Shown here: positions 5,911 through 51,144 of the stretch, piece after piece
Numbering within the stretch: position 1 is the stretch's first letter
How the letters are laid out: each line of letters begins with the position of its first letter
Source of the DNA: a virus
Taxonomy: Duplodnaviria; Heunggongvirae; Uroviricota; Caudoviricetes
DNA length: 64,000 bases
Reading direction: 5' to 3' (one strand)
Virus record (IMG/VR): IMGVR_UViG_2537561935_000012
Program-made: the position numbers and the translations under genes
The notes under the pieces: model-generated
What the model was told of the DNA's origin: nothing
Seen by the model: the letters and a program-made list of their open reading frames with translations, nothing else
Database searches by the model: none

Positions 5911-5928
5911 AGCGTTTTACCTCAATGA

Positions 5929-8594: not shown

Positions 8595-8600
8595 ATAAAT

Positions 8601-8894: not shown

Positions 8895-8901
8895 ACTTAC
8901 C

Positions 8902-9024: not shown

Positions 9025-9072
9025 TATAAATTTTCTCTCGGTGTCGTAGGTGATAGCACCATAATTGATAAT

Positions 9073-9324: not shown

Positions 9325-9391
9325 ATTGAATACAAACCCAGTGCTGCCGCCATCACAATTCCTACCGTTGCGAATGCTTCAGGCCAGCTCA

Positions 9392-9652: not shown

Positions 9653-10452
9653 TTCGCCTCCTGCGGCGGTTCTGGTAGCGGCATCCAGTACAAGGCGTTC
9701 CCTAACCACGATAAAGTGCCGTCGCTCAACTCCACGTATTCCCCTTGTACCTGTCCTGCCATATACTCGCCGTGCTTTGAATAAATTAAAATCCAATCAT
9801 CTTGAGCGGGCATTCGCTCACTACAGCTTATCCAACCATCCGGAGTTACCGGATAGTTGCCATTCACAAGGTCAGCTCGAACATATAGCGTGTCATCATG
9901 GTGCTGATTGTGGCTGCACCACGTTAATTCGCTTAACTCGCCATCTTCTGGCCATACTCCAGCTGTTTGCAGCCAGATATGGGCTGGCGCATCTTGGCAA
10001 GGTGTATTAACTGGCAACTTGTAAGTTTGGCTTACAGGTTGGCTACCCTGAAGCATGGCAGCGTGGCAGGCATCCTCAACGTTCTTCACTGCATCTGCGC
10101 AGTAGTTATAGCGATTGCATTCCACTAATTTCTGCTTGAGGTTTTCAATTGCTAACTCGATTTCATCCGGCACTACCGGCTCTGGTTGGATAGTGACGTT
10201 GGCAAAGGCAGCACGCAAACCGGCCTTAATTTCCTCTACTTCATCAGCGCCTAGCGATGAATCTGACAATGCGTGATGGAATGCGTAAGCCATGTCGTCG
10301 TTTACTGCAACCGGTTCTGCTTCCAGCGATGCCAGAGCAATTCGTGCCAGTTCTTCCGCTTCTTCTGCTGGCAGTACAACGTTGCTACCAGGTCCGTATG
10401 TTTCGCGCCACTGCTTGATTGTCAGCAGTCGCTCTTTGGTAATAGTGATCAT
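9649..10452 (-). CDS. hypothetical protein with DUF551-like C-terminal domain
   Basis: 267 aa; C-terminal W..D.LP pattern common in prophage proteins. Confidence 0.5.
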   Translation of the reverse strand: MITITKERLLTIKQWRETYGPGSNVVLPAEEAEELARIALASLEAEPVAVNDDMAYAFHHALSDSSLGADEVEEIKAGLRAAFANVTIQPEPVVPDEIELAIENLKQKLVECNRYNYCADAVKNVEDACHAAMLQGSQPVSQTYKLPVNTPCQDAPAHIWLQTAGVWPEDGELSELTWCSHNQHHDDTLYVRADLVNGNYPVTPDGWISCSERMPAQDDWILIYSKHGEYMAGQVQGEYVELSDGTLSWLGNALYWMPLPEPPQEAK

Positions 10453-10964
10453 GCCGCGTTTCCTTCTTTCTTATTAACAATTACACCGTCATATATTTCA
10501 TTAAGGTGCCCTCTCAACTCCATGCGCCTTAATGCAGATAACATGTAATCGCATTCAACCTGCTTATTTCCAGTAAATGGCTTATCGTCAGGATTACCCC
10601 AACAGCAATTACCCTTGGGCCACCCATGTACTTTCCGTACTCTTCCGTTAACAACGTGAAGTAATCCCCAGCCAGGTGGTAAATCCTCAACTGAAATAAT
10701 TCCCGGCTCACTAATAAAGAATCGCCAGTCGCCCATTCCAAGAGATGGATTTTTACGAAAACGCTTTTTTCTATCTGCCAACAAGTCAGCACGAGAACAC
10801 TTCGCCTCTATCAGGCATGATGCTGAATTTCTGAATCCCATAGCATCTGGCTGTTCTCCGGTACTGGTTACAGCTATAAAGCGGTCATGAAAACAAACCT
10901 TGAACCCGTTGCGCTTAAGGAACTTATACGCAATCTGACAGAGTTCGCGGTGTGTTAACGCCAT
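10449..10964 (-). CDS. hypothetical protein, possible PD-(D/E)XK-like nuclease
   Basis: about 171 aa from MALTHRELCQ with GGAG RBS; D..IEAK motif; weak. Confidence 0.4.
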   Translation of the reverse strand: MALTHRELCQIAYKFLKRNGFKVCFHDRFIAVTSTGEQPDAMGFRNSASCLIEAKCSRADLLADRKKRFRKNPSLGMGDWRFFISEPGIISVEDLPPGWGLLHVVNGRVRKVHGWPKGNCCWGNPDDKPFTGNKQVECDYMLSALRRMELRGHLNEIYDGVIVNKKEGNAA

Positions 10965-10965
10965 A

Positions 10966-11154
10966 TCACTCTCCTTTAGTGCGCAAGTGGTTTTTCCAGC
11001 GGTTTTGCGCCGCGCTGGGCTTTTTGCAAAAACCACAATCCATCATCCCGTAATATTTCATCAACCCCATCCGTCGGTTGCTGAGTCTCACCCACTGCCA
11101 GACGCCAGGAGCGTTTCTACGAACTAACAGAATCTTTGCTTTACGGTTTTTCAT
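10966..11154 (-). CDS. small Arg/Lys-rich protein, 62 aa
   Basis: starts MKNRKAK; ATGA overlap with upstream small ORF. Confidence 0.3.
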   Translation of the reverse strand: MKNRKAKILLVRRNAPGVWQWVRLSNRRMGLMKYYGMMDCGFCKKPSAAQNRWKNHLRTKGE

Positions 11155-11327
11155 CTTACAGCGTACCCTTTCTTCCGCCTGTTCTGTGACGCAGTAGGCT
11201 TACGCTTTGCGGCAAAAGCCACCTGACCAAATGGATGGAGTACCGCTATCTTATGGTTGCTAATAACCAGCTCCACCACACGCACAGGTCGCTGTAAAAA
11301 AAGTCGTTTTGCCTTACGGTTTTTCAT
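11151..11327 (-). CDS. small Arg/Lys-rich protein, 58 aa
   Basis: also starts MKNRKAK; too short for the ORF track; translationally coupled. Confidence 0.3.
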   Translation of the reverse strand: MKNRKAKRLFLQRPVRVVELVISNHKIAVLHPFGQVAFAAKRKPTASQNRRKKGYAVR

Positions 11328-11500
11328 CGCTTTGCTCTCCTGCGTCTCTTTGCTGCTCGTCGTGCCGCTGCAATACCGGTATGGCGGCGCTTTGGTGCCG
11401 GGATGATGTTGTCAGCCATCAGGACATACGGCTTTGCAATTAGCGCAGAAGCCCAAAAACGAGTCGGGTACGGTAACAAGCCGATACATGCCACACGCAT
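11324..11500 (-). CDS. small basic protein, 58 aa
   Basis: AAGGAGG RBS; TAATG overlap with upstream stop; C-terminal RRAAKRRRRAKR. Confidence 0.3.
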   Translation of the reverse strand: MRVACIGLLPYPTRFWASALIAKPYVLMADNIIPAPKRRHTGIAAARRAAKRRRRAKR

Positions 11501-12120
11501 TACTCACCTCCTTTGATGCGAATGCCAGCGGCGCGTGGCACATTAACTTCCACGATGCGCACAGTTGGTTTGTACATCTCAATCGCAGTCAGCCAGTCAG
11601 CGCCAGTCATGCGCTTTTCTGCATCGCCATTAGTCCACTTAACCGGTACACCAATAGCCTTCATCGCGATTTCTATTTCCCCGGCAATGGCGCTTTTTCC
11701 GCAACCAGTAAAACCAGATACAACGACCAGAACTTCACCTTTGGCTGGTTTTATTCCCCGCGCTTCCAGTTCTGCTATGCGCTTACTTCCATCCGAGATA
11801 ACACCTTCGTAATACTCACGCTGCTCGTTGAGTTTTGATTTTGCCAACTCCAGTTGTTTTGTTAGTTCCGCAATACGGCAAACATCGTTGATACGCGTTT
11901 CCTCTAATGCGTTGATCTCATCCAGTAGTGCCAGCACGGTTTCTGGTCCGGCCAGAAATTTGAAGGCGTTGAGGGCATCAATATCAACACCGCTATCTTT
12001 AAGTTCCTGTTCGCTTATCAGAGCATCATCAACTGGCAACATTAACAGGCGTTCCATTGCCGGAATTGCACGCTCTGCCGCCTCACGCAGTGCCTGATAG
12101 TCAATTGTCATTCTCGCCAT
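11500..12120 (-). CDS. hypothetical protein
   Basis: 206 aa; coiled-coil N-terminus. Confidence 0.5.
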   Translation of the reverse strand: MARMTIDYQALREAAERAIPAMERLLMLPVDDALISEQELKDSGVDIDALNAFKFLAGPETVLALLDEINALEETRINDVCRIAELTKQLELAKSKLNEQREYYEGVISDGSKRIAELEARGIKPAKGEVLVVVSGFTGCGKSAIAGEIEIAMKAIGVPVKWTNGDAEKRMTGADWLTAIEMYKPTVRIVEVNVPRAAGIRIKGGE

Positions 12121-12752
12121 CCTTCACAGTTGTAATCACTACAGCCTTCAAAATCATATGGGCTGTACTGCCAGGTTATTTTTCCGCAATGCGGACAATT
12201 CCAACGCACCTTCCCGCTTCGCGACTTCTTTCTTCTGTTCTGCTCTTTCAACCAGTCAGGCATGACCAAACCTGCGCCCTGAACCATTGTTCTGCGGTTA
12301 AAGTTATTGATATTGAACGTCCGACGCTTTGCTGCATCAGCAATGGAAAATGGCAACCAAACTATTCCTGGTTCGTTTTTGTTGGCGACGCTAAAGATGG
12401 TCGCTTTACTGAAGTCATCTGTTGGCAATCCACCGTGTTGAAGCCAGTAAACATCGTTGCCGTTCCAGCTACCTTTTTTGTAGGCCACATACGCAGTGCA
12501 ATCTGACTCAATCAGGCTTTCTGTGGGGATGTACTGGCAATCAACGTGCCACACAGCCATTGCATCCACGCTATCAGCGCAAACAGGCTGATCGATATCT
12601 CGTCCACAATTCCAGGCTTTTTGGGCTTCTTCCAGCGTGTAAACATGAGCGCGATCGATATCAGAACTGTAACCATTGCCGTTATGGCAATGGAATGAGG
12701 CGTTATTACCCACAGTTTCACGCAAGCACATCATGTAAAAGCGGTTATTCAC
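12108..12752 (-). CDS. hypothetical protein with C-terminal zinc ribbon
   Basis: 214 aa; CPHCG...C..YNCEGW. Confidence 0.5.
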   Translation of the reverse strand: MNNRFYMMCLRETVGNNASFHCHNGNGYSSDIDRAHVYTLEEAQKAWNCGRDIDQPVCADSVDAMAVWHVDCQYIPTESLIESDCTAYVAYKKGSWNGNDVYWLQHGGLPTDDFSKATIFSVANKNEPGIVWLPFSIADAAKRRTFNINNFNRRTMVQGAGLVMPDWLKEQNRRKKSRSGKVRWNCPHCGKITWQYSPYDFEGCSDYNCEGWRE

Positions 12753-13029
12753 TGGTTGCCTCCGCTTCCCACGTTTTCAGACTTTCACCACAGAACGGGC
12801 AAAATGAAACTCGAATAGGCGATTTAGAAAATTCACCAGACCGCAGCATGATCAGGTCTTGTGAATGAATTAATTCATGGTTATAGATTTTGTATTTCAG
12901 CAGACCTTTTCGCGTCGTGTATTCAGCGTCATGCTCCAGGGATTGTGCCAACGCCGCGCACGGTTCTATCTTGTTGCCATTAATTTGGCATTTTGACTCA
13001 CTCACTGGTTGCCCCCTGAATACGCTCAA
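12745..13029 (-). CDS. hypothetical zinc-ribbon protein
   Basis: 94 aa; CPFCG motif. Confidence 0.4.
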   Translation of the reverse strand: MSVFRGQPVSESKCQINGNKIEPCAALAQSLEHDAEYTTRKGLLKYKIYNHELIHSQDLIMLRSGEFSKSPIRVSFCPFCGESLKTWEAEATSE

Positions 13030-13579
13030 ACTCTATTACCCACACCCAAGGATTAGCGTTCCAACTATCTTCGCCATAAATTGATTTCCATAGGCTACGG
13101 AAACCTGGGTAATGCTTATCGCCAATGAGGGTCGATTCTGTTGGTGCGCCCTCAGCCCTTGCATCGCATTCGCTGATATCGTTCAACCGCTCAACGCGCA
13201 CGTTGGTAATTTCCAGAAGAATGCGCGATGCCCAGCGCGGCATGTGAATTGATGGCGTCCACTTTTCTGATACTGGTTTATTACAAACCTCGACCGGAAC
13301 CCGGTGCGTTTGTTCTGTCCAGGAGTTACGCACGCTTGCGCGATAAACCAGCGTTGCGACGTCCGTCGCTTTGCCATGTACCCGGTAGGTTTCGCGAACC
13401 CAAATACGATCGCCCGGTTGACCATATGGACAATGCTTGGCAAGCAACTCTGCGGCCACTGCCCGTCCATAGAATTTTTCTTCAACAATCCTGCGAGTCT
13501 GTGTTTTATTCCCGCCAAGAATTGCCCGGACCATCTCATCGTTAAAAATCATGCCGCGCTCTTTCACTTCGCCTTTCAT
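12998..13579 (-). CDS. ASCH/PUA-like phage protein
   Basis: 193 aa; N-terminal MIFNDEMVRAILGGNKTQTRR...GDRIWVRE. Confidence 0.5.
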   Translation of the reverse strand: MKGEVKERGMIFNDEMVRAILGGNKTQTRRIVEEKFYGRAVAAELLAKHCPYGQPGDRIWVRETYRVHGKATDVATLVYRASVRNSWTEQTHRVPVEVCNKPVSEKWTPSIHMPRWASRILLEITNVRVERLNDISECDARAEGAPTESTLIGDKHYPGFRSLWKSIYGEDSWNANPWVWVIEFERIQGATSE

Positions 13580-29384: not shown

Positions 29385-29401
29385 AAATTTATTAGAGCAA
29401 T
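29385..29401. promoter_or_regulatory. C1 operator, perfect 17/17 match
   Basis: aaatttattagagcaat overlapping the dmt stop, at the head of the tRNA-tci-ban transcription unit. Confidence 0.75.
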
Positions 29402-31656
29402 ATACCCAAAACGTCATGAGCTACACCTCGAGTGTCCCCCTTACAAGACACAGAACGTCTGGCAAAAAGAGGTTCCACTCTGAAGCCACTGTCATGATAA
29501 AGCTCTCTGATGTTTGGCGCGCCACTGTTAGTAATGAGAACCTTTGCACCTCGACGATGAGCATCCGTCAACAGAGACACCAGGCGTTTTTGCTCTTCAA
29601 ACTTAAAGTCATGACCGGAATAGTTCGTGAATCCCTCTGTATTTGGAAGCGGTTCATACGGCGGATCGCAAAAGATGACATCTCCTTCTCCGGCAGCTTC
29701 AATCACCGCTGCAAAATCACCGCATACAAACTCAGACCGCCCTTCCGCACCGAGGAAGGCTTCCATCTCCTGTAATGGGAAATACGGAGTTTTATACTTC
29801 CCGTAACCGACATTGAACTCACCGGCCTGGTTGTAACGCGTCAATCCGTTAAAACAATGTCGGTTCAGGAACAAAAACGCCGCTGCGCGATGTAAATCAT
29901 CATAGACTTGTTTGTTAAACGCATTCCGTACTGCCAGGTATCCTTCCTGTGTGTTGTAGCCCTGGAAGAAACGATGCGCCAGTGTGATAAGTGAATGCGC
30001 CTCGCGTTGCAGAGTCTTGTAAAAGTTAATCAGGTCAGCATTCACATCATTTAGCAGATTTTCCTGGTATCCGGCATTCGTGAAGACAGCTCCGCCACCG
30101 ACAAAAGGTTCGATCAGGCGCTTCCCTTCTGGCAAATAGCGAAAGATTTGTTCCAGAACACCAAATTTTCCACCAGCCCATTTGAATATGGACCGTTCGA
30201 ATTCTGCCGCTGGTTTAACTTTTCGCTCTTTTGTTTCACTTCCTTCTTTCTGCCGACATACGGCCTTAGTAATCCGATCGCCAATCCAGCGCATTACTGG
30301 TATTGCCATACTATTGCCGATCGCTTTGTAACGCGGTCCGTCAGCTGCAAGCATCGCGGCCTCTTCTTCGCTTAAATATGGATAGTGATTGCGAAGATAT
30401 GCCAGTTCATCTGAATTAACTTTTTTACGCTTTTCCGTCGGGATCAACGTATGCCCATCAGGAAAACCTTGCAGCCTTTCACATTCGACAGGGGTAAGAC
30501 GGCGGACAGCTACTTCTGCGTTTCTTACTTCATAGCAAACAGCTGTTGGATTTTTAGCCATTAGAGATGGTGAAGTATTCTTAGTTGCAGCATGTTGTGT
30601 ACCGCTCATACGCTCAGGAAAAGCCAATGTAACAAGATGCTCATGGCTTTCTTGCTCACGTGCCCGCAATGTACCATGCCCTTCTGACCAAAAACCTGCT
30701 CCTGTGCTGCTAAAAACGGCAAGGTCAGTGGCATCTTTAAAATCTCTTGCCTTTACTGTCGATGCGGTTTCATCGTCAATATATTCCCCAAATGCTGCCA
30801 TCCTGAAAGCGTTTACGGCTTTCGTCGATTTCATACCGGGTGGCATGTCAGCGTGTAGGCATGGATTTAGGCTTTCGCCACTGATTGCAGCGCCATTTGC
30901 AATAATGGCGGAAGCGATTTCCTTCTTTTTTCGGCTCGGCGCAATATTCCGACGCACGCCTTCGAACTCAAAAAGTACCGTTGCGGGATCGAGGTCTGTT
31001 CGAGCACTTGCGACAACAAACACGCGTCGGCGTCGTTGTGCCACTCCGAAGTATTGGGCATCAAGGATTCTCCAGGCCACCTTTCGCTGCGGTCCATAAA
31101 TACAACCACACTGCGGCCACTTTGGAGCATGGCAACCGGTTTTGCCATCCCACCGCCAGAACGCGTTACTTTTTCCTGATTCAGGTCGATCACCTGGTTC
31201 AAATGGCGCATCTTCTCCAGCCAATCCGGCAAGGAAACATCCGAAGGCGTTATCTGCCGATGACAGGACTCCTGGGACATTTTCCCAGACGATAACTGTC
31301 GGTTTGAGGAAGGACTCAGACCGTTTGTCGTCAATTGCATTTGCAAGCTCCACATACTTCAAAGTTAGCGCGCCGCGTTCATCATCAAGCCCACCACGTA
31401 AGCCCGCGATACTGAATGCCTGACAAGGCGTACCCCCGACGAGCACATCAGGGGATTCGATTTCCCCAGCCAGGACTTTTTTGGCAAGTTTTGTCATGTC
31501 GCCAAGGTTGGAGACATGGGGCCAGCGGTGCGCAAGAACGGCAGATGGAAAAGGCTCGATTTCAGCAAACCACGCCGGACGCATACCCAACGGTTCCCAG
31601 GCAATACTCGCGGCTTCAATTCCACTGCAAACAGATCCATAGCACAGCTCTTTCAC
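29392..31656 (-). CDS. dmt: bifunctional DNA methyltransferase (C5-cytosine N-terminal, N6-adenine C-terminal)
   Basis: 754 aa; PCQ and ENV motifs in the N-terminal half; DPPY and FxGxG in the C-terminal half. Confidence 0.9.
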
Positions 31657-32558: not shown

Positions 32559-32907
32559 GTTGTAACCCTTGAATATCAACCACAGAAAGCTCGTCTTTGT
32601 AGAAAAAGGCCAGGTTGTGGCACCCCCTCGTTTGAGCGTATGAGCTGGGACCAATTTCGTTCTTCCAGACAAATGGCTTCAAATCCGTACGGCGAAGCAT
32701 AAAAACGCGATTTGTTCCGCTCTGATTCCCAATGAGGCAAAAGCCTTCTTTCACCTTGATAGCCTGCAAGTTGTCGAGTTCACCGCTGGTTACACGGCTA
32801 TCGAACTCCTTGCGGCTTATTAGCTCCATCTGCATCTGACGACTCCAAACAAATGCCCATTGAAGGGCGATGGCTGAATGGTACCGAAAATACGACATAA
32901 AAAACAA
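32551..32907 (-). CDS. hypothetical protein upstream of hrdC
   Basis: 118-aa ORF; start region overlaps an operator. Confidence 0.4.
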
Positions 32908-32923
32908 TATTTATTAGAGCAAT
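32907..32923. promoter_or_regulatory. C1 operator-like site (16/17)
   Basis: atatttattagagcaat at the head of the hrdC-dmt operon. Confidence 0.65.
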
Positions 32924-33004
32924 TTTGCAATAGTTGAACTCCATGTAGACCACAAACAACCTGAGTTAAAATAACGAAAATCAGAGCAAATAATTGGTGA
33001 TGAC

Positions 33005-33289
33005 GTGGCAAGTATTGCAACAAAAGACAGCATTTGTTCGGGGCACGGAGGATTCCCATCCAGGCCTCCTGTAGAGAGTGAACCACTACTTAAAGTCAAC
33101 GGAGTCGAAGTGTTAGTTGATGGTAAGCAATATGCACAGCATACCGATGGAAACAGTACGCACGGTGGGCAAGCTATATCAACCAGGGCATGGTTTACCG
33201 TCAATGGTAAAGGGATCGTATGCGTTGGTGACCCTGTTTCATGCGGATCTACCGTAGCGTCCGGAGACGGCCTGGTTCAGGTAAGTTAG
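33005..33289 (+). CDS. PAAR-like Gly/Cys-rich small protein (candidate)
   Basis: 94 aa, GTG start; SGHGG, THGG, CVGDPVSCGS motifs. Confidence 0.4.
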   Translation: MASIATKDSICSGHGGFPSRPPVESEPLLKVNGVEVLVDGKQYAQHTDGNSTHGGQAISTRAWFTVNGKGIVCVGDPVSCGSTVASGDGLVQVS

Positions 33290-33297
33290 GAGATATC

Positions 33298-34086
33298 ATG
33301 CTGGAAAAAGACTACCAGTTATCCGCATATAAAAAATTGGCCGCCGCCGGTGGGATGAAAACACCTGGTGCCATAACATCGGCACGAAACAGTGCTAACA
33401 CAGCAAAACTGCTTGCAGAAGAATTGACCGGATTAATTCTGGATACAATTGTCTATCCCGACACTATTACCAGCTATGTTTCAACGATCAGAACAACCAC
33501 AACCGGCTTAACGAACATTGGAGAACTGGCAACTAAGCACGCGGACCTGTTGGCTGGTTATGCAGATCTGTCAATGCTGCTTCAACTCGATATTGGTTGG
33601 GATGTTTACTGCCGTGCTAATGAGCGAGAAGTATCAGAACTGCCGATCTCTATTGCCATTGGTGATGTGACTATTACTAAATCGCTTGAGGACGCTGTAA
33701 ACGCGCTTAATACATCAAGTTTAATCGCTGCTATGGGGGAGATTAACCAGACCCTTAACACTGGCTCAGGAAGCTCGTCAGGCTCTGGTTCAGGCGGCGG
33801 CACTGCCACTCCCCCACCAGCACTAACAGAAGAGCAAATTGAATCTCTGAAAGTAGCAACTGAACAGTTTGGGGTTGTTTTCAACCAGACAACAGCGCCC
33901 ACAACTGCGTTACAACAGCAGTATGAACGAGCGAATGAAAGCGCCAATGTAGCCATAACTGCTTATAACCATGCTATCGGTACTGCGCTTGCGGAAGCAT
34001 CAGCAAATAAGGCCAGCACAGCCAGCGCAGTTGCTGCTTTGGTTCCTGATTCTGTTCTTGATGAATTAAACAAAGCGGCACAGTAA
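33298..34086 (+). CDS. hypothetical protein with Ser/Gly linker
   Basis: about 262 aa from ATG after AGGAG RBS; GSGSSSGSGSGGG linker. Confidence 0.5.
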   Translation: MLEKDYQLSAYKKLAAAGGMKTPGAITSARNSANTAKLLAEELTGLILDTIVYPDTITSYVSTIRTTTTGLTNIGELATKHADLLAGYADLSMLLQLDIGWDVYCRANEREVSELPISIAIGDVTITKSLEDAVNALNTSSLIAAMGEINQTLNTGSGSSSGSGSGGGTATPPPALTEEQIESLKVATEQFGVVFNQTTAPTTALQQQYERANESANVAITAYNHAIGTALAEASANKASTASAVAALVPDSVLDELNKAAQ

Positions 34087-34125
34087 CAAAGGACTTCATT
34101 GATAATTTTTCTTCAGGAGGAAGAC

Positions 34126-34548
34126 ATGTCATTCTTTTCTACGTTAAAAACAGCTTTGTCTTTGAAGGAGAAACTTGCTGCTACTGGTGTTCTTGTTCTG
34201 ATTTGCGCACTTGTTGGTGCTGGGTTTGCATGGGAACGTCATCAGCTAAAGCAAGCCATCGAGAAAATTGGCAGTCTTGATCAGGCTGTTAAGGAACGTG
34301 ATAAGTCAATAATGGATCTTAACCAGACCATTGAGACGATGAACAAAGCAGATCAACATTTTCACAGCCAGGAAGTGAAAAATGAATCAGAGCAAGCCAA
34401 GTATGCTGACAGGCAAATGGAACGAAAAGCTGAAGTTCAGAAACAACTGGTTGCGGCGGGTAATGTTCGCCAGCGTATTCCTGCTGACACTCAGCGGTTG
34501 CTCCGGGAGTCGATCAGCGAATTTAACGCCGACGCCGACAAAGGTTAA
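34126..34548 (+). CDS. Rz-like inner-membrane spanin (candidate)
   Basis: N-terminal TM helix then coiled-coil domain; AGGAGG RBS. Confidence 0.45.
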   Translation: MSFFSTLKTALSLKEKLAATGVLVLICALVGAGFAWERHQLKQAIEKIGSLDQAVKERDKSIMDLNQTIETMNKADQHFHSQEVKNESEQAKYADRQMERKAEVQKQLVAAGNVRQRIPADTQRLLRESISEFNADADKG

Positions 34549-34714
34549 CCACCCTGCCCCCAAAAGTGCATTTATGTGCAGGATGCCAGAGTTTAGCAGT
34601 GAATATTTTGATGATCTGCCAGCGTATATCCTCGATACAGAAACGATGCTGATGGGGATTAACAGGAAGAATCGCAACGTTAATGATTACAACCGAGCTA
34701 TTAGCGGTAACTAA
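34463..34714 (+). CDS. Rz1-like outer-membrane lipoprotein spanin (candidate)
   Basis: starts inside the Rz-like gene in another frame; lipobox LTLSGC. Confidence 0.4.
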   Translation: MFASVFLLTLSGCSGSRSANLTPTPTKVNHPAPKSAFMCRMPEFSSEYFDDLPAYILDTETMLMGINRKNRNVNDYNRAISGN

Positions 34715-34725
34715 AAGGGATTTTT

Positions 34726-35118
34726 ATGTCTGATAAAGTAACAGTAAAGCAAACTATCAACAAAGCGACTTCAATCTACAAAATTGAGCAAATCACTGTT
34801 GGCAAGCCAGGATCTGAACAATACCGTCGTGCTTTCGAGCTTGCCGATCAGCTTGGTTTAAAACACCCGGATTGCATTGAGCATGTATTTCCGACCTATG
34901 CTGATGAGCAATGTACTCATGTTCTTACCGAAGAGGATTTTTTCAGCACTGAAGAACGAGAAGGCGTTGATCGCTGCATTGGTGTGATTTGTTCTTCGGT
35001 AAGTGATGAGTTATTCCCTAATGTGCCTGAATATGGTGGTATTGGATACCAATTCCTGTACGAGGGCGATGAGCTTAAATGCTATGAACATGGTCTTCTC
35101 ATCGAAAGCGTAGAATAA
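34726..35118 (+). CDS. hypothetical protein
   Basis: 130-aa ORF followed by a terminator. Confidence 0.5.
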   Translation: MSDKVTVKQTINKATSIYKIEQITVGKPGSEQYRRAFELADQLGLKHPDCIEHVFPTYADEQCTHVLTEEDFFSTEEREGVDRCIGVICSSVSDELFPNVPEYGGIGYQFLYEGDELKCYEHGLLIESVE

Positions 35119-35126
35119 TACGACTC

Positions 35127-35157
35127 CCTTCCAACCGGCTACGTTGGCCGGTTTTTC
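35127..35157 (+). terminator. rho-independent terminator
   Basis: ccggctacgttggccgg hairpin plus T-run. Confidence 0.6.
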
Positions 35158-35159
35158 AC

Positions 35160-35420
35160 TTATCCACATTATCCACTGGATAGATCCAATAATCAGGTCC
35201 ATACAGATCCCAATTAGATCCATATAGATCCCTGATCGTTGCAGGCCGCGCCACGTCTGGCTTAGAAGTGTATCGCGATGTGTGCTGGAGGGAAAACGAT
35301 GTGTGCTGGAGGGATAAAAATGTGTGCTGACGGGTTGCTAATGTGTGCTGGCGGGATATAGGATGTGTGCTGACGGGAAAGCCTGGGTAGTTATCACCAC
35401 TTATAAAAACTATCCACACA
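35160..35420. other. oriR: plasmid origin oriR: DnaA boxes, GATC cluster, five iterons
   Basis: tandem TTATCCACA/TTATCCACT; five GATC in about 60 bp; five 19-bp iterons; DnaA-like boxes on the repA side. Confidence 0.85.
35277..35378. repeat. incC: incC iterons (5 x 19-bp RepA sites)
   Basis: gatgtgtgctggagggaaa and four variants at about 21-bp period. Confidence 0.9.
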
Positions 35421-35436: not shown

Positions 35437-36297
35437 ATGAATCAATCATTTATCTCCGATATTCTTTACGCAGACATTGAAAGTAAGGCAAAAGAACTAA
35501 CAGTTAATTCAAACAACACTGTGCAGCCTGTAGCGTTGATGCGCTTGGGGGTATTCGTGCCGAAGCCATCAAAGAGCAAAGGAGAAAGTAAAGAGATTGA
35601 TGCCACCAAAGCGTTTTCCCAGCTGGAGATAGCTAAAGCCGAGGGTTACGATGATATTAAAATCACCGGTCCTCGACTCGATATGGATACTGATTTCAAA
35701 ACGTGGATCGGTGTCATCTACGCGTTCAGCAAATACGGCTTGTCCTCAAACACCATCCAGTTATCGTTTCAGGAATTCGCTAAAGCCTGTGGTTTCCCCT
35801 CAAAACGTCTGGATGCGAAACTGCGTTTAACCATTCATGAATCACTTGGACGCTTGCGTAACAAGGGTATCGCTTTTAAGCGCGGAAAAGATGCTAAAGG
35901 CGGCTATCAGACTGGTCTGCTGAAGGTCGGGCGTTTTGATGCTGACCTTGATCTGATAGAGCTGGAGGCTGATTCGAAGTTGTGGGAGCTGTTCCAGCTT
36001 GATTATCGCGTTCTGTTGCAACACCACGCCTTGCGTGCCCTTCCGAAGAAAGAAGCTGCACAAGCCATTTACACTTTCATCGAAAGCCTTCCGCAGAACC
36101 CGTTGCCGCTATCGTTCGCGCGAATCCGTGAGCGCCTGGCTTTGCAGTCAGCTGTTGGCGAGCAAAACCGTATCATTAAGAAAGCGATAGAACAGCTTAA
36201 AACAATCGGCTATCTCGACTGTTCTATTGAGAAGAAAGGCCGGGAAAGTTTTGTAATCGTCCATTCTCGCAATCCAAAGCTGAAACTCCCCGAATAA
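35437..36297 (+). CDS. repA: plasmid replication initiator RepA
   Basis: 286 aa flanked by iteron arrays. Confidence 0.95.
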   Translation: MNQSFISDILYADIESKAKELTVNSNNTVQPVALMRLGVFVPKPSKSKGESKEIDATKAFSQLEIAKAEGYDDIKITGPRLDMDTDFKTWIGVIYAFSKYGLSSNTIQLSFQEFAKACGFPSKRLDAKLRLTIHESLGRLRNKGIAFKRGKDAKGGYQTGLLKVGRFDADLDLIELEADSKLWELFQLDYRVLLQHHALRALPKKEAAQAIYTFIESLPQNPLPLSFARIRERLALQSAVGEQNRIIKKAIEQLKTIGYLDCSIEKKGRESFVIVHSRNPKLKLPE

Positions 36298-36298
36298 G

Positions 36299-36600
36299 TG
36301 TGTGCTGGAGGGAAACCGCATTAAAAAGATGTGTGCTGCCGGGAAGGCTTGTCCAATTTCCTGTTTTTGATGTGCGCTGGAGGGGGACGCCCCTCAGTTT
36401 GCCCAGACTTTCCCTCCAGCACACATCTGTCCATCCGCTTTTCCCTCCAGTGCACATGTAATTCTCTGCCTTTCCCTCCAGCACACATATTTGATACCAG
36501 CGATCCCTCCACAGCACATAATTCAATGCGACTTCCCTCTATCGCACATCTTAGACTTTTATTCTCCCTCCAGCACACATCGAAGCTGCCGGGAAAGCCG
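36299..36600. repeat. incA: incA iteron array (about 9 sites, both orientations)
   Basis: three direct then about six inverted copies of the iteron downstream of repA. Confidence 0.85.
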
Positions 36601-36853
36601 TTCTCACCAGTTGATAGAGAGTGAAGCTTGGCTGCCCATTGAAGCAGGAAATCACCAAAATGATTCAGGCTACAACCTGAACGTAGAAGAAATCCGCGTC
36701 CTTTATGCGTGGAGGATGCCAAAGCATGTTGTGACACACTTGGCAAAGGAGTACGCATGCAGAGAATGCTATGTACAAGCATCTACGCATACATTATTAT
36801 TTTATGCAGCATTTTTAATTAAATTCAAAAATACAGCATAAAGGATGACTTCG

Positions 36854-38050
36854 ATGAGTGATTCCAGCCAGCTTCACAAGGTTGCTCAAAGAGCAAACAG
36901 AATGCTCAATGTTCTGACTGAACAAGTACAGTTGCAAAAGGATGAGCTACACGCGAACGAGTTTTACCAGGTCTATGCGAAAGCGGCACTGGCAAAATTG
37001 CCTCTACTGACTCGAGCGAACGTTGACTATGCCGTAAGTGAAATGGAAGAAAAGGGTTATGTTTTCGATAAACGCCCTGCTGGCTCTTCAATGAAATATG
37101 CGATGTCAATTCAGAACATCATTGACATATATGAACATCGCGGAGTGCCAAAATACCGGGATCGCTACAGCGAAGCGTATGTGATTTTCATCTCCAATCT
37201 TAAAGGCGGTGTGTCAAAAACTGTATCGACGGTTTCTCTGGCGCATGCAATGCGTGCTCACCCTCATCTTCTTATGGAGGATTTAAGGATTCTGGTTATT
37301 GACCTTGATCCGCAATCTTCAGCAACGATGTTTTTAAGCCATAAACACTCTATTGGTATCGTAAACGCAACATCTGCACAGGCTATGTTGCAGAATGTAA
37401 GCCGTGAAGAGCTGTTAGAGGAGTTTATTGTTCCTTCTGTTGTACCTGGGGTTGACGTTATGCCTGCGTCGATTGACGATGCCTTTATTGCATCCGATTG
37501 GAGAGAGCTGTGCAATGAGCATCTACCGGGTCAGAACATCCATGCTGTCCTGAAAGAAAATGTGATTGATAAGCTGAAGAGCGATTATGACTTTATCCTC
37601 GTTGATAGTGGTCCTCACCTTGACGCCTTCCTGAAAAATGCTTTGGCCTCGGCCAATATACTGTTTACACCTCTGCCGCCAGCAACTGTCGATTTCCACT
37701 CATCGCTTAAATACGTTGCCCGCCTTCCTGAGTTGGTAAAACTCATTTCGGATGAAGGCTGCGAGTGTCAGCTTGCGACTAACATTGGTTTTATGTCCAA
37801 GTTGAGTAATAAGGCAGATCATAAGTATTGCCATAGCCTGGCTAAAGAAGTGTTCGGTGGGGATATGCTCGATGTCGTCCTCCCTCGCCTTGACGGTTTT
37901 GAACGTTGCGGCGAGGCTTTTGACACTGTTATTTCAGCTAACCCGGCAACGTATGTTGGTAGTGCTGATGCATTGAAGAACGCGCGAATTGCCGCGGAAG
38001 ATTTTGCTAAAGCAGTTTTTGACCGTATTGAATTTATCAGATCTAACTGA
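36854..38050 (+). CDS. parA: partition ATPase ParA
   Basis: 398 aa from second ATG; deviant Walker A KGGVSKT. Confidence 0.95.
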   Translation: MSDSSQLHKVAQRANRMLNVLTEQVQLQKDELHANEFYQVYAKAALAKLPLLTRANVDYAVSEMEEKGYVFDKRPAGSSMKYAMSIQNIIDIYEHRGVPKYRDRYSEAYVIFISNLKGGVSKTVSTVSLAHAMRAHPHLLMEDLRILVIDLDPQSSATMFLSHKHSIGIVNATSAQAMLQNVSREELLEEFIVPSVVPGVDVMPASIDDAFIASDWRELCNEHLPGQNIHAVLKENVIDKLKSDYDFILVDSGPHLDAFLKNALASANILFTPLPPATVDFHSSLKYVARLPELVKLISDEGCECQLATNIGFMSKLSNKADHKYCHSLAKEVFGGDMLDVVLPRLDGFERCGEAFDTVISANPATYVGSADALKNARIAAEDFAKAVFDRIEFIRSN

Positions 38051-38066
38051 GGAGTAAGAACCCCCC

Positions 38067-39068
38067 ATGTCAAAGAAAAACAGACCAACAATTGGGCGAA
38101 CCCTTAATCCTTCAATATTAAGCGGATTTGATAGTTCTTCAGCCTCTGGCGATCGAGTCGAGCAGGTATTCAAGTTATCAACTGGTCGCCAGGCCACATT
38201 TATTGAAGAGGTAATACCTCCGAACCAGGTAGAAAGCGATACCTTTGTTGATCAGCATAACAACGGGCGTGACCAGGCATCTCTTACGCCAAAATCATTA
38301 AAAAGTATCCGAAGCACTATTAAGCATCAGCAATTTTACCCTGCAATAGGTGTTAGACGGGCTACAGGGAAAATTGAAATTTTGGATGGTTCCCGGCGTC
38401 GAGCTTCTGCCATCTTAGAGAACGTAGGGTTGCGGGTTTTAGTCACGGACCAGGAGATCAGCGTTCAGGAAGCGCAAAATTTAGCGAAAGACGTTCAGAC
38501 AGCATTGCAGCACAGCATTCGAGAAATAGGTCTGCGTTTGATGCGAATGAAAAATGATGGGATGAGTCAGAAGGATATTGCAGCCAAAGAAGGGCTGTCT
38601 CAGGCGAAGGTCACGCGTGCTCTCCAGGCAGCGAGTGCTCCGGAAGAATTAGTCGCCCTTTTCCCTGTGCAGTCGGAATTAACCTTTTCGGACTACAAAA
38701 CGCTTTGTGCTGTTGGCGACGAAATGGGGAACAAGAATTTAGAGTTTGATCAGCTTATTCAAAACATATCCCCGGAAATAAACGACATCTTATCCATTGA
38801 AGAAATGGCCGAAGATGAAGTTAAAAATAAAATCCTGCGCTTGATAACAAAGGAAGCCTCACTACTCACGGATAAAGGTTCTAAAGATAAGTCCGTAGTT
38901 ACTGAATTATGGAAATTTGAGGACAAGGATCGCTTTGCAAGGAAGCGCGTGAAAGGCCGTGCATTTTCTTATGAGTTTAATCGACTTTCAAAAGAGCTAC
39001 AGGAAGAACTCGACAGGATGATTGGGCATATCCTTAGAAAGAGCCTCGATAAAAAGCCGAAGCCTTAA
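38067..39068 (+). CDS. parB: partition protein ParB
   Basis: 333-aa ORF directly after parA and before parS. Confidence 0.95.
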   Translation: MSKKNRPTIGRTLNPSILSGFDSSSASGDRVEQVFKLSTGRQATFIEEVIPPNQVESDTFVDQHNNGRDQASLTPKSLKSIRSTIKHQQFYPAIGVRRATGKIEILDGSRRRASAILENVGLRVLVTDQEISVQEAQNLAKDVQTALQHSIREIGLRLMRMKNDGMSQKDIAAKEGLSQAKVTRALQAASAPEELVALFPVQSELTFSDYKTLCAVGDEMGNKNLEFDQLIQNISPEINDILSIEEMAEDEVKNKILRLITKEASLLTDKGSKDKSVVTELWKFEDKDRFARKRVKGRAFSYEFNRLSKELQEELDRMIGHILRKSLDKKPKP

Positions 39069-39070
39069 AC

Positions 39071-39158
39071 TTTCGCCATTCAAATTTCACTGTTAACCTA
39101 CTGTTTTTAAAGTAAATCAATCTAAAATTTCAAGGTGAAATCGCCACGATTTCACCTT
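39071..39158. other. parS: partition site parS
   Basis: ATTTCAC heptamers and TCGCCA hexamers on both sides of an AT-rich IHF-like spacer. Confidence 0.8.
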
Positions 39159-48893: not shown

Positions 48894-49385
48894 ATGAGAA
48901 AACTATTACTACCGTTATTATTTATGGCTGGGACTGTTAATGCAGCATCAAGCGTGAAGGAGATTTGTACCGATTATACGAAATACCTTGGGCACGTTTA
49001 CGGCTTTGCTGTCAGTCAAGACGAATCCATGCGCAAGAAGTTACTGTCAGATATGAAACGTCTTAAACTTTCTGAAGCGATGGTGCAGCAAGAACTATAT
49101 AAAGTCGCAACCAACGAAAATGCTAAATATCAATATTCTCGCCTATTAAATCCCGACGCAAACGAGATCAATCGAAGCACTTTCGATTATATGGTAAAGG
49201 CATGCGAAACCGCTCCTGATTTTGCTATCCCTAGCTGGGGTGTGCTGGTGGCGAGCAATGCCGTTAATAAAGAAGATGTTGGAAGAAATGGCATTGACTC
49301 AATAAGAAATGCCCCAGGAATGCGCCATCAAAACGTACAGGGTACGCTTGAAGAACGAGCCAGGGGGCCGGGTGTAGCCCCATAA
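48894..49385 (+). CDS. secreted protein with Sit-like C-terminal motif
   Basis: signal peptide MRKLLLPLLFMAGTVNA; C-terminus NAPGMRHQNVQGTLEERARGPG; low GC. Confidence 0.55.
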   Translation: MRKLLLPLLFMAGTVNAASSVKEICTDYTKYLGHVYGFAVSQDESMRKKLLSDMKRLKLSEAMVQQELYKVATNENAKYQYSRLLNPDANEINRSTFDYMVKACETAPDFAIPSWGVLVASNAVNKEDVGRNGIDSIRNAPGMRHQNVQGTLEERARGPGVAP

Positions 49386-49473
49386 TTTAATAAATAATAT
49401 TAAATTCTCTGGGCATAGTGGATCTAACAATATGGACTATGCCTATAATATCTAAAAACAAAAGGATAAAAAT

Positions 49474-49980
49474 ATGAAATTGTATAAGTCATTGTATAGC
49501 TTTTTATTAATGTCCTCTTTTCTGCCATTATCAGCAATGGCAGGTTCTACCGTTTGGACGGTAGGAGGGGAGCAAGGGTGGAGAGAAATCTCTGCAACCA
49601 ATGACGATGGTTACACAATTAACTTTTCTTGTGATGCTGGAGCAAGGGAAGGTTCAGAAGATCATATCGCTGGAAGAAATTTGTATGTAAGCGGAGGAAA
49701 AGAGAATGCCGATTTTTCTACACGCGACACAATATCACGTAAAGCAGATGTAATTACTTTAATTGTTGGCCCGGATAGTTTTAATATTGGCACGCAAAAC
49801 ACTGCTCCTAATCGTAGGGAATGGTATTCATTTTGGAAGGCAGTGTCATCTACAAATGAAAAAAACATAGATGTATATATCGGTTCGAGTCGAATCACAT
49901 CATTCACTCTGGATGGTATTTCCAGTATTTATACAGAAGCTAAAAATGACGGGTGTTTAAAACAAGATGACGGTGAATAA
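49474..49980 (+). CDS. secreted/periplasmic protein
   Basis: 168 aa; signal peptide ending SAMA; low GC. Confidence 0.55.
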   Translation: MKLYKSLYSFLLMSSFLPLSAMAGSTVWTVGGEQGWREISATNDDGYTINFSCDAGAREGSEDHIAGRNLYVSGGKENADFSTRDTISRKADVITLIVGPDSFNIGTQNTAPNRREWYSFWKAVSSTNEKNIDVYIGSSRITSFTLDGISSIYTEAKNDGCLKQDDGE

Positions 49981-51040
49981 AGTGAAGGATATTAAACACA
50001 TTTCGCTTAACTCTAATAATAAAGCTGAAGGCACTGCCTTTTATGATTATTTAAATGAAATTAAAGGAGTGAGGCATAAAAAGATAAGTGGTTTATTAAA
50101 TTCAGAATATATTTACAAGAGTTTAGTTAAACAGTTTGGAACAGTTAAAAAACAAGAATTAATTAATGATTGTTTTCGAAAAGAACTTGAGTCTTTACCA
50201 AAAGTTACGAGAATTGCACACCAGTTTCGTGAACAAATGGTATTTTTACAGAAACAGTATCAGGCGGCTTTTCCCAGTGATGCAAATGAGCATATTCAAA
50301 TAATTAAAAATCAAGCTGAAATGGCTATGCCGTTACGAAAACACTCAGAAGCCATTAATAAGATAGCTGGCTTAAATAATATGGAGGAGGTATTTAAAGA
50401 ATTACACTCTAATATAAATTACAAAATTAAGATAAGCAAAGATATTAAAGAAATAATAAAGCAGTATAATAAAACAAGAAGTGTATTATTAGAGCAAGTA
50501 GTAGAGCTTGGGCTTGTTACTATCGCGCAGGCTTATGCTAATGATTCTATAAAATCAGCGCATACCGAAAGTGAGCATCAAAACAAAGGATTTAATAAAT
50601 CTAGTTCGACGTTTTTTGATTCATTTAAGGCGCTTCCTTCTCCTATTCAGATCTTCCTTCTGTGGATTTTTTATCAAGTGGTGCTTGGCGCTATAACTGA
50701 TTATGCAAAAGAAAAGACATTATCGCAAATTTACAAGATGGAATCATATCTTCTATCTCTAAATGAGGATAAGCCAATATCTAAGCAAAAGCTAACACAA
50801 GAAAATAAAGATATTCAGTGGGAGGATCTTAATAATTTTAGAGCTATAACAGGTGATAACGTAAGGTTGCATGTCGGCCCTTCTTTAAATAGTGAAGTGA
50901 TTGAATGCATTGGCAAAAACACAATTGTTGCTATTTTAGATAAGAAAGATCGTCAATGGCTTTACGTGCAGGTTAAATCAGGGGATGAGTTTATTACTGG
51001 TTGGATTACACGAACATACACAAAGCCTCTTAAGGCTTGA
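49967..51040 (+). CDS. membrane-anchored protein with C-terminal SH3b-like domain
   Basis: 357 aa; TM helix IQIFLLWIFYQVVLGAI; C-terminal NVRLHVGPS...WLYVQV...GWI. Confidence 0.55.
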   Translation: MTVNKVKDIKHISLNSNNKAEGTAFYDYLNEIKGVRHKKISGLLNSEYIYKSLVKQFGTVKKQELINDCFRKELESLPKVTRIAHQFREQMVFLQKQYQAAFPSDANEHIQIIKNQAEMAMPLRKHSEAINKIAGLNNMEEVFKELHSNINYKIKISKDIKEIIKQYNKTRSVLLEQVVELGLVTIAQAYANDSIKSAHTESEHQNKGFNKSSSTFFDSFKALPSPIQIFLLWIFYQVVLGAITDYAKEKTLSQIYKMESYLLSLNEDKPISKQKLTQENKDIQWEDLNNFRAITGDNVRLHVGPSLNSEVIECIGKNTIVAILDKKDRQWLYVQVKSGDEFITGWITRTYTKPLKA

Positions 51041-51144
51041 ATTTTATCTCCGCATCTTCGGATTGGGTGTTGATGACGATGTGCTACTTGAAGCACTTGA
51101 GTTGTTTTAACGTAGTATCTGAAATGTGTAGACTGACCGGTAAC

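Follow-up and report, generated by a model that had tools for sequence, protein, structure and literature searches.

The closest described counterpart of the locus analyzed here is in phage P1, where the upfC-upfB-ppfA-mlp cluster has already been reported. In cryo-EM of P1, monomeric UpfC is modeled on the tip of the trimeric gp5 needle (PMC12810830; bioRxiv 2025.07.21.665459), and UpfB is assigned as a baseplate "tripod" joined to UpfC (PMC12810830, PMC13611949). The tripod itself is an AlphaFold3 model fitted into medium-resolution density only (PMC12810830), and HHpred links P1 UpfC to gp5.4 (PMC9024508). The defining signature of spanins is a type II inner-membrane helical protein paired with a +1-frame overlapping outer-membrane lipoprotein (Kongari 2018), and the curated spanin census lists P1 gp064 (PpfA) as OIS and gp063 (Mlp) as OOS, with the arrangement "ovl" (Kongari 2018 Table S1). 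The census family "P1" holds P1 and P7 only, both with overlapped spanins (Kongari 2018 Table S1). Moreover, mlp, ppfA, and upfC are among the 21 "extremely conserved" genes in a comparison of 77 P1-like plasmids (PMC9603915).

Here, we analyze a stretch of 64,000 nucleotides (the window) that comes from a P1-like phage-plasmid (Punavirus) and carries the same cluster. We conclude with high confidence that upfC-upfB-ppfA-mlp, together with upfA, form a P1-like cluster in which UpfC and UpfB belong to the spike tip and PpfA and Mlp most likely constitute a two-component spanin. Nothing in the gene content is new. All of its elements are already named, listed in the spanin census, or structurally solved in P1, and the locus carries little weight as a discovery. 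The comparative data nevertheless add some support to the published predictions, as the mlp frame, the long signal peptide, and the upstream start are all conserved in relatives whose PpfA is as little as 30% identical.

The P1-like locus and its layout

The cluster and its flanking elements are arranged as follows.

32907 to 32923, minus strand: operator for the C1 repressor (Op68/Odmt), belonging to the divergent promoter Pdmt and placed by carrying over the P1 annotation; minus-strand sequence ATTGCTCTAATAAATAT
33005 to 33289, plus strand: upfC, 94 aa, GTG start; PAAR-like/T4 gp5.4-like spike-tip protein
33298 to 34086, plus strand: upfB, 262 aa; all-alpha, apart from an unstructured Ser/Gly loop (residues 158 to 169) that is modeled at low confidence
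34126 to 34548, plus strand: ppfA, 140 aa, predicted i-spanin, preceded by an AGGAGG Shine-Dalgarno sequence
34382 to 34714, plus strand: mlp, 110 aa, in the +1 frame relative to ppfA; predicted o-spanin, made as the precursor of an outer-membrane lipoprotein
34382 to 34548, plus strand: 167-nt stretch read in two frames, in which the last 55 ppfA codons also encode the Mlp signal peptide and first mature residues
34726 to 35118, plus strand: upfA, 130 aa, phrog_1453, function not assigned; last co-oriented gene, just beyond the four-gene stretch
35133 to 35163, plus strand: terminator-like hairpin of 9 pairs with a T-rich tail, a pattern match only, just 3' of upfA at the edge of oriR

Nucleotide identity to phage P1 is 96.6 to 97.9% here, and the P1 annotation transfers gene for gene with a constant offset of 29699. 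The gene set, order, orientation, and neighbors all match those of P1 (NC_005856 P1_gp066 to gp063), and the P7 counterparts of upfC, upfB, ppfA, and mlp are upf63.8, 63.6, 62.7, and 62.4, respectively. Across the four genes, nucleotide identity to P1 and P7 is 95.7 to 97.9%, and at the protein level identity to P1 is 93/94 for UpfC, 99.3% for PpfA, and 99.1% for Mlp. The differences from P1 are point substitutions with nothing structural among them, for example, S86 for A86 in UpfC, D76 for E76 in PpfA, and S4 for N4 in Mlp. One segment of the window, the par region at 36585 to 39123, failed to match isolate OP279344 and was considered as non-P1 DNA, a reading that is ruled out. The window is 99.3% identical to canonical P1 there, and thus OP279344 is the odd isolate at that position.

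The cluster is flanked by the divergent uhr-hrdC-dmt operon on one side and by oriR/repA on the other. A preliminary description of the sequence had placed these genes next to a plasmid origin, and indeed, the transferred P1 annotation puts oriR and repA (35437 to 36297) directly downstream. The hairpin beyond upfA probably marks the end of an upfC-to-upfA transcription unit, to judge from the sequence pattern. The upfA gene is swapped for a Gp49-family gene in many relatives, and the order upfC-upfB-ppfA-mlp is kept in all three clades of relatives that we found. Gene callers often miss or shorten upfC and mlp, and a practical point for annotation is that both genes are frequently absent or truncated in gene calls.

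UpfC and UpfB, probable spike-tip proteins

UpfC is a homolog of phage spike-tip proteins. A search of PDB sequences with UpfC returned the P1 protein (9VYI_A "UpfC," E value of 1.7e-60, 93 of 94 residues identical), followed by 9F4B_BA (4.8e-10), T4 gp5.4 (5IV5_ZA, 8.6e-8; 4KU0_D, 1.2e-7), and the PAAR protein 4JIV_D (3.7e-4). These matches bear out the likeness to PAAR spike tips that had been proposed from the letters alone. The motifs on which that proposal rested are all present in the 94-residue frame, with SGHGG at residues 12 to 16, THGG at 52 to 55, and CVGDPVSCGS at 73 to 82, while the accompanying label "Gly/Cys-rich" overstates the cysteine content: glycine accounts for 14 of the 94 residues, and cysteine for only 3. 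The literal PAAR tetrapeptide is absent from all 94 residues of UpfC and likewise from the aligned part of T4 gp5.4. In T4 gp5.4 and 9F4B, the positions aligned with H14, H46, H53, and C80 of UpfC are likewise three His and one Cys. The same four residues are retained in clades 2 and 3. Shneider et al. reportedly described in 2013 a His/His/His/Cys set near the apex as the metal site of PAAR proteins, and we regard the four aligned residues of UpfC as putative metal ligands.

PAAR proteins also occur in type VI secretion, and UpfC might instead be a T6SS-type PAAR protein or a host-acting "moron" with no part in the virion. UpfC matches phrog_281 (2e-30), a family that PHROG classes as "moron, auxiliary metabolic gene and host takeover," and it matches the NCBIfam T6SS_PAAR_dom model (NF033420) over its full length with an E value of 4.5e-9. 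The score of that match, however, is 36.3 bits against an equivalog cutoff of 124, and the score against Pfam PF05488 PAAR_motif is 26.4 bits, just under the gathering score of 27. Thus, UpfC is a PAAR homolog but not a T6SS PAAR equivalog. Virion LC-MS/MS also did not detect UpfC (PMC9024508), which could speak for a role outside the particle; the protein was likely missed, however, because it is present in one copy per virion (PMC9024508). Moreover, the closest solved relatives of UpfC are phage spike tips, two cryo-EM studies model it on the P1 needle, and inspection of parts of the window, which is otherwise P1-like, turned up no T6SS genes. We consider a T6SS or host-takeover role highly improbable, and the placement of UpfC at the spike tip is preferred. 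Deletion of upfC gives normal plaques (PMC9024508).

The gene that follows upfC had been described as encoding a protein with a Ser/Gly linker. The linker is present (GSGSSSGSGSGGG), and the protein is UpfB. The original P1 annotation starts upfB at 33241 (281 aa), but the best start is the ATG at 33298, which has an AGGAG Shine-Dalgarno sequence ahead of it and gives a protein beginning MLEKDYQL, a start that is conserved in divergent clades. An AlphaFold2 model of UpfB is confident and all-alpha, with 11 helices (pLDDT of 82.8, pTM of 0.77). A fold search with UpfB gave no significant match, as the PDB offered generic helical bundles with TM scores below 0.3; a weak resemblance was seen to phage DUF7217 proteins (TM of 0.46 to 0.49, E value of 0.03). 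PHROG places UpfB in phrog_1559, which has no assigned function, and PDB sequence searches with UpfB, as with PpfA, returned nothing meaningful. The P1 assignment suggests that UpfB forms the tripod here as well.

PpfA, Mlp, and the reading-frame overlap

PpfA has the architecture of an inner-membrane spanin component. It carries a single transmembrane domain at residues 17 to 35 (nucleotides 34174 to 34230; Kyte-Doolittle score of 2.35), an N terminus with a net charge of +2, and a periplasmic domain of about 105 residues, 35% of them charged, that contains no cysteine. The AlphaFold2 model (pLDDT of 69.8) consists of a helix from residue 13 to 110, a hinge or loop from 111 to 119, and a second helix from 120 to 137. 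One N-terminal transmembrane domain with a mostly helical periplasmic domain is what is expected of an i-spanin, and the predicted orientation is N-in/C-out. PpfA matched three PHROG families, phrog_89 (1.1e-24), phrog_739, and phrog_214, all annotated "Rz-like spanin." The match to the TIGR03495 LysB model was weak (E value of 0.003, 17.9 bits against a cutoff of 92.75), and Pfam Rz/Rz1 models matched neither PpfA nor Mlp at an E value of 1 or below.

Mlp has the signals of an exported lipoprotein. Residues 1 to 39 form a signal peptide with an n-region charge of +6, and the lipobox LSGC (residues 37 to 40, within the motif LTLSGC) is predicted to be lipidated at Cys40 (nucleotides 34499 to 34501), with Ser at position +2, a residue that, unlike Asp, directs sorting to the outer membrane. 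The predicted mature form is 71 residues long and contains one further cysteine, C66, which is invariant among relatives. The spanin census likewise places the LipoP cleavage at 39 and flags the signal peptide as "too long" (Kongari 2018 Table S1). Mlp matches phrog_30284 and phrog_456, both "Rz-like spanin," and no lipobox open reading frame other than mlp occurs in the window or anywhere in the P1 genome.

The preliminary description had read these two genes as a spanin pair in which an Rz-like membrane protein contains an embedded lipobox frame. The membrane protein is as described, with its transmembrane domain, helical remainder, PHROG families, and i-spanin row in the census, and the pairing agrees with the census, which lists P1 gp064/gp063 as a predicted overlapped i-/o-spanin (Kongari 2018). 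The lipobox LTLSGC does lie in the +1 frame, but "embedded" needs correction: mlp and ppfA have 167 nt in common, after which mlp continues for 166 nt past the ppfA stop (34548), and thus the genes are overlapped.

The mlp frame might in principle be open by chance and no gene at all. Most records skip mlp or call fragments of 45 to 52 aa, and a signal peptide of 39 aa is unusually long, as the census flag indicates. An open reading frame of 109 to 111 aa is intact, however, in every relative found, with the lipobox Cys and the second Cys invariant, whereas the control +2 frame at the same site is open for only 35 to 51 codons. The ATG is preceded at 8 nt by an AGGA Shine-Dalgarno sequence. 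Past the overlap, substitutions among relatives fall at 0.135, 0.09, and 0.418 in codon positions 1, 2, and 3, the pattern of a coding sequence. Within the overlap, total divergence is 0.169, compared with 0.265 in the ppfA-only and 0.214 in the mlp-only portions, and ppfA third-position variation falls from 0.442 to 0.286. The frame is conserved across clade 2 (about 60% identity), clade 3 (PpfA at 30% and Mlp at 51%), and one 1.2-kb orphan contig, and it is Mlp that keeps 51% identity where PpfA keeps only 30%. These patterns indicate that the mlp frame is under purifying selection in all relatives found, down to 30% PpfA identity, and the comparative data already refute a chance open frame, to which we give practically no credence. 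The conserved frame, the PHROG Rz-like families for both proteins, and the PDB matches for UpfC all run counter to the outcomes that would have undone the preliminary description, namely, a lipoprotein frame that is not conserved and a lack of PAAR or spanin similarity.

Lysis, expression, and comparison with known systems

The preliminary description called a spanin pair away from any visible endolysin or holin unusual. The separation is real, as mapping to P1 places lyz and lydC/A/B about 32 to 43 kb away, outside the window, but it is a documented P1 peculiarity (PMC9025707). Relatives in a lysis cassette were not found by any search. An exhaustive HMMER profile search returned PpfA relatives only in P1-like elements and the 1.2-kb orphan contig, tblastn against phages and a word-indexed protein search gave no distant PpfA relatives in lysis cassettes, and a scan of viral contigs with the family alignment recovered only near-identical P1-like loci.

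PpfA and Mlp might be an envelope-spanning pair that is not, or not only, a lysis spanin but a device for entry or superinfection exclusion with a functional tie to the spike-tip and tripod genes. The pair is syntenic with upfC and upfB in all three clades, is unlinked to lyz and lydAB, and has no relative in a holin/endolysin cassette. Synteny, however, says little on function because gene order is kept throughout P1-like genomes. CRISPRi knockdown of mlp, ppfA, upfB, or upfC leaves plaque formation unimpaired, and ppfA and mlp were scored nonessential in an assay that scored lambda Rz essential; under many laboratory conditions, on the other hand, phages can do without spanins (PMC9025707). 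Unlike the short, Pro-rich lambda Rz1, mature Mlp is a longer domain (71 aa), and it is far better conserved than PpfA (51% against 30%). Against this, PpfA and Mlp carry the defining spanin signature (Kongari 2018), and they are the only candidate spanin in P1.

Expression also bears on the choice. The P1 annotation predicts sigma-70 promoters ahead of ppfA, which would favor an entry or exclusion device, but RNA-seq log2 fold changes at 10 and 20 min resemble those of late genes and differ from those of the early neighbor uhr, and the profile is neither prophage- nor early-like. Late expression of the cluster is suggested accordingly by its profile. The annotated promoters LPdar and LPlyz served to define an Lpa late-promoter motif, to which no sequence near upfC comes within 2 mismatches. 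A 3-mismatch site at 34088, just ahead of ppfA, is too weak to claim. When the region upstream of upfC was aligned across clades, only the strongly conserved C1 operator stood out, together with TAAAAT at 32967 to 32972, which resembles a -10 element. On balance, we think it unlikely that PpfA and Mlp are an entry or exclusion device. Equally unlikely is its fuller form, in which the pair would be no conventional lysis spanin but part of an "envelope-crossing" module with UpfC and UpfB, and the UpfB tripod, which is without a fold relative among solved structures, would be a new accessory class on a PAAR tip.

The two-component spanin is the preferred reading, and the cluster may work as follows. 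UpfC would be a single-copy PAAR-like cone that caps the trimeric gp5 baseplate needle and sharpens its membrane-piercing tip, and UpfB, a helical protein, would sit on UpfC as the reported tripod. PpfA would be anchored in the inner membrane by its one N-terminal helix, with the helix-hinge-helix domain reaching into the periplasm. Mlp would be exported, receive its lipid at Cys40, and end up in the outer membrane, and the two proteins may bind one another across the periplasm. After murein degradation by Lyz, PpfA and Mlp would complete lysis by fusing or disrupting the outer membrane.

At the spike tip, UpfC can also be compared with the system of T4. T4 gp5.4 and PAAR-repeat proteins (5IV5, 4KU0, 4JIV) are, like UpfC, single domains of about 95 aa with near-full-length homology to it, and both gp5.4 and UpfC sit as monomers atop a trimeric beta-helical needle (PMC12810830, PMC12407873). 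The needles and tips differ, however, in that P1 gp5 is without the lysozyme domain present in T4 gp5, and the P1 tip is reported with an UpfB tripod that T4 does not have (PMC12810830).

Among spanins, P2 LysB/LysC share with PpfA/Mlp a type II protein of the inner membrane whose periplasmic domain is helical, as well as a +1-frame gene for an outer-membrane lipoprotein that starts inside the first gene and overruns its stop. PpfA/Mlp differ from P2-type overlapped spanins in being a sequence family of their own, with a weak LysB profile match, in the periplasmic cysteines (none in PpfA and one in Mlp), in a 39-aa signal peptide, and in a holin and endolysin that are not adjacent. Lambda Rz/Rz1 resemble PpfA/Mlp in predicted topology, in the helix-hinge-helix layout, and in an o-spanin encoded in the +1 frame. 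Rz1, however, lies wholly inside Rz, whereas mlp overruns ppfA by 166 nt. PpfA, unlike lambda Rz, has no periplasmic cysteine, and mature Mlp is a 71-aa protein with a well-conserved C-terminal region, whereas lambda Rz1 is a short, Pro-rich peptide.

Gene map and variable segments

Window positions 32700-35200 align with the opposite strand of phage P1 (NC_005856, 62868-65368) at 96.6% identity; for P7 and further P1-like phages, the identity is 95.7-97.9%. Local mapping on the complete P1 genome showed that the window runs from the end of c1 round to the invertible tail-fibre segment, and the P1 annotation was carried over at a constant offset.

Genes and sites, transferred from the P1 annotation apart from the preferred upfB start
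29392-31656, minus strand: dmt
after dmt, minus strand: hrdC and uhr
32907-32923: Pdmt promoter with C1 operator Op68
33005-33289, plus strand: upfC
33298 (preferred start; 33241 in the P1 annotation), plus strand: upfB
34126-34548, plus strand: ppfA
34382-34714, plus strand: mlp
34726-35118, plus strand: upfA
oriR, followed by repA at 35437-36297

Thus, the region singled out in the preliminary description is exactly upfC to mlp, and every motif quoted there was found in the window sequence. The identity of upfC, upfB, ppfA and mlp is certain, and all of the elements here have already been described for phage P1. Public annotation often omits or shortens upfC (33005-33289) and especially mlp (34382-34714; 4260-4592 in L002), as seen in loci from relatives (L002, L003-L007, L010 and L097). 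Neither gene is annotated in P1 isolate OP279344, JK004 carries only a 135-nt mlp fragment, and metagenome gene calls are limited to fragments of 46-52 aa or are absent.

Elsewhere in the window, a 7.8-kb segment (5672-13487) without a match to OP279344 codes for DUF551 and Ead/Ea22-like proteins, shows mosaic relationships to SJ46, P7 and lambdoid/Stx phages, and is the counterpart of pmgT-humD, a variable region already known in P1-like plasmids. Positions 49034-51141, where sim (superinfection exclusion) would lie, have no match to P1 and hold ORFs of 168 aa and 357 aa, the latter ending in a C-terminal bacterial SH3 domain (PF08239). The parA/parB genes (36585-39123) are 99.3% identical to canonical P1 (NC_005856) and have no match in OP279344; that isolate evidently has another par module. 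Finally, many P1-like plasmids, and the divergent clades as well, have a Gp49-family gene (PF13876) in place of upfA (34726-35118), as at L003 3601-3966, L006 3600-3953 and L097 5864-6226, and therefore the interval between mlp and oriR is a swap point.

UpfC and UpfB, assigned to the spike tip

UpfC had been portrayed as a Gly/Cys-rich, PAAR-like protein of 94 aa. It is rich in glycine (14 of 94 residues) but not in cysteine, of which there are three, and the likeness to PAAR was borne out by a PDB sequence search that returned T4 gp5.4 (5IV5, 4KU0; E ~1e-7), the gp5.4-like chain 9F4B and the canonical PAAR protein 4JIV_D (E = 3.7e-4). In the two gp5.4-type alignments shown, H14, H46, H53 and C80 of UpfC are identical in T4 gp5.4 and 9F4B. 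Assignment as a T6SS PAAR was rejected, as UpfC fell below the curated thresholds of both Pfam PAAR_motif (26.4 bits versus 27) and NCBIfam T6SS PAAR (36 bits versus 124). Homology and the missed thresholds together place UpfC among the phage spike-tip proteins of the PAAR superfamily. Moreover, 93 of the 94 residues are identical to PDB chain 9VYI_A, named UpfC, and because a structure has been solved for an essentially identical protein, we conclude that UpfC is the predicted spike-tip protein of this phage. UpfC has been assigned to gp5.4 by HHpred, with no plaque phenotype upon deletion (PMC9024508), a BLAST match joins T4 gp5.4 and P1 UpfC (PMC12407873), and monomeric UpfC sits on the gp5 trimer in two cryo-EM studies, one of which is PMC12810830. 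Chain BA of 9F4B, a 97-aa gp5.4-like spike-tip chain, has "Phospholipase" as its molecule name, apparently an inherited misannotation.

UpfB, previously noted as a Ser/Gly-linker protein, falls in phrog_1559, to which PHROG assigns no function, and its family is confined to P1-like elements. The older P1 annotation starts the gene at 33241 (281 aa, with a 49-nt overlap with upfC). The 262-aa model starting at the ATG at 33298 appears better and the upstream start less likely, because a strong AGGAG Shine-Dalgarno sequence precedes 33298 and the MLEKDYQL start is kept in all divergent clades. An AlphaFold2 model from an alignment of 13 sequences was confident (pLDDT 82.8, pTM 0.77) and wholly alpha-helical, with the Ser/Gly stretch (residues 158-169) at very low confidence and devoid of secondary structure. 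A fold search of PDB and BFVD with this model gave no significant match. An AlphaFold3 model fitted into medium-resolution density led to the assignment of UpfB as a novel tripod attached to the spike tip (PMC12810830), and PMC13611949 repeats this assignment.

Reading frames and expression of ppfA and mlp

A lipobox ORF does lie in another frame of ppfA, as the preliminary description held, but it is not embedded. Instead, mlp lies in the +1 frame, overlaps ppfA by 167 nt and extends a further 166 nt beyond the ppfA stop, such that the pair is "overlapped" in spanin nomenclature. Each start has a good Shine-Dalgarno sequence upstream.

The lipobox ORF had been staked on conservation of its frame, and the frame is conserved. 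Relatives were grouped as a second clade (Salmonella, Cronobacter and Klebsiella; ~60% protein identity), a third clade of 90-94 kb P1-like contigs, and one orphan 1.2-kb contig. In every relative collected, a +1 ORF of 109-111 codons runs open over the ppfA stop; the control +2 frame at the same place is open for 35-51 codons only. The lipobox reads LTL[SN][AG]C, LLTLSAC or LSLSSC, and the second Cys (FMC.MP) and the C-terminal motifs DDLP.YILD and INRKN.NVN.YN are kept in all of them. Past the overlap, mlp substitutions were 0.135, 0.09 and 0.418 at codon positions 1, 2 and 3, and total divergence in the overlap was 0.169 versus 0.265 and 0.214 in the flanks. Of the two frames in the shared stretch, that of PpfA is better conserved (identity 0.67-0.78), and the n-region of the Mlp signal varies freely (0.32-0.39); in the third clade, identity is 51% for Mlp versus 30% for PpfA. 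At 39 residues, the Mlp signal peptide was marked in the spanin census as perhaps too long (Kongari et al. 2018 Table S1). The upstream ATG, however, is the sole start conserved in all clades, and Met28 internal to P1 Mlp is absent elsewhere, which argues that the long signal predicted from sequence is real.

The third clade (L097-L099) is far more divergent than the others; it has three extra genes between uhr and upfC and a TTG start for upfC, and it keeps the order upfC-upfB-ppfA-mlp. In L008, an E. coli contig of 4.7 kb, a PpfA variant (59-481; 83% identity) lies at one end; its first ~24 residues, to mid-TMD, are replaced by unrelated sequence, possibly at a junction produced by recombination or assembly.

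In a P1vir RNA-seq table (log2 fold change at 10/20 min), the profiles of ppfA (0/3.1), mlp (0/1.5), upfB (0/4.0) and upfC (0/0) resemble those of the known late genes lyz (0/3.2), lydA (0/1.5) and prt (0/4.0); the early neighbour uhr stood at 6.9 at 10 min. The profiles hint that upfC to mlp may be expressed late. With a late-promoter motif derived from the annotated LPdar and LPlyz promoters (AAGTKAYTT-N4-TANNNT), no Lpa-type promoter was found near upfC within two mismatches, and strong conservation upstream of upfC was confined to the C1 operator of the divergent promoter, with a -10-like TAAAAT in addition. A terminator-like hairpin lies downstream of upfA. A weak three-mismatch match to the late-promoter motif, AAAGGACTTCATTGATAAT, occupies 34088-34106, ends 20 nt before the ppfA start, and is near P1ppfA, a predicted sigma-70 promoter annotated in P1.

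PpfA and Mlp as a predicted spanin pair

The original P1 annotation (NC_005856) called mlp a membrane lipoprotein precursor with a possible lysis role and gave ppfA a "possible periplasmic function". Later, Kongari et al. (2018, Table S1) classed P1 gp064/gp063 and P7 Upf62.7/62.4 as overlapped i-/o-spanins that form a separate family. The P1 genes have also been described as partially overlapping, in an operon unlinked to other lysis genes, and picked by predicted features (PMC9025707). That study, and Table S1 of bioRxiv 10.64898/2025.12.28.696737, which follows it, name ppfA the o-spanin and mlp the i-spanin. The sequence reverses this assignment, as ppfA encodes the TMD and mlp the lipobox, in agreement with Kongari et al.

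A spanin pair remote from any endolysin or holin had been called unusual. The distance is real, and scattered lysis genes were already known for P1: a lyz-lydD-lydE late operon, lydA-lydB in the dar operon, lydC apart and spanins elsewhere (PMC9025707). No endolysin or holin had been seen because lyz and lydCAB, 32-43 kb from ppfA in P1 coordinates, fall outside the window. When the window and the complete P1 genome were scanned for lipoboxes, mlp was the sole hit, and ppfA/mlp is therefore the one candidate for a two-component spanin.

PpfA and Mlp are very probably a spanin pair, a prediction that draws on architecture, topology signals, dual-frame selection and the lack of another candidate. 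The main rival, less likely and with only circumstantial support, is that they form an envelope pair for entry or exclusion jointly with UpfC and UpfB. Knockdowns of ppfA and mlp indicated that they are non-essential for plaque formation. In favour of the spanin reading, three of the PHROG families labelled "Rz-like spanin" match PpfA (phrog_89 at 1.1e-24) and two match Mlp. Neither protein matched the Pfam Rz and Rz1 models, and the P2 LysB model gave a sub-threshold match only. In Mlp, a basic n-region and a hydrophobic core precede the lipobox LSGC (Cys40, Ser at +2), and the mature part of 71 residues contains one further Cys. PpfA has a net positive N-terminus, a single strongly hydrophobic segment (residues 17-35; Kyte-Doolittle 2.35) and a periplasmic part of 105 residues that is 35% charged and free of Cys. 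The original observation was confirmed and its interpretation was essentially right. In the AF2 model of PpfA, a long helix extends to residue 110 and is joined by a loop (111-119) to a second helix (120-137), and this helix-loop-helix is the layout known for Rz-type i-spanins.
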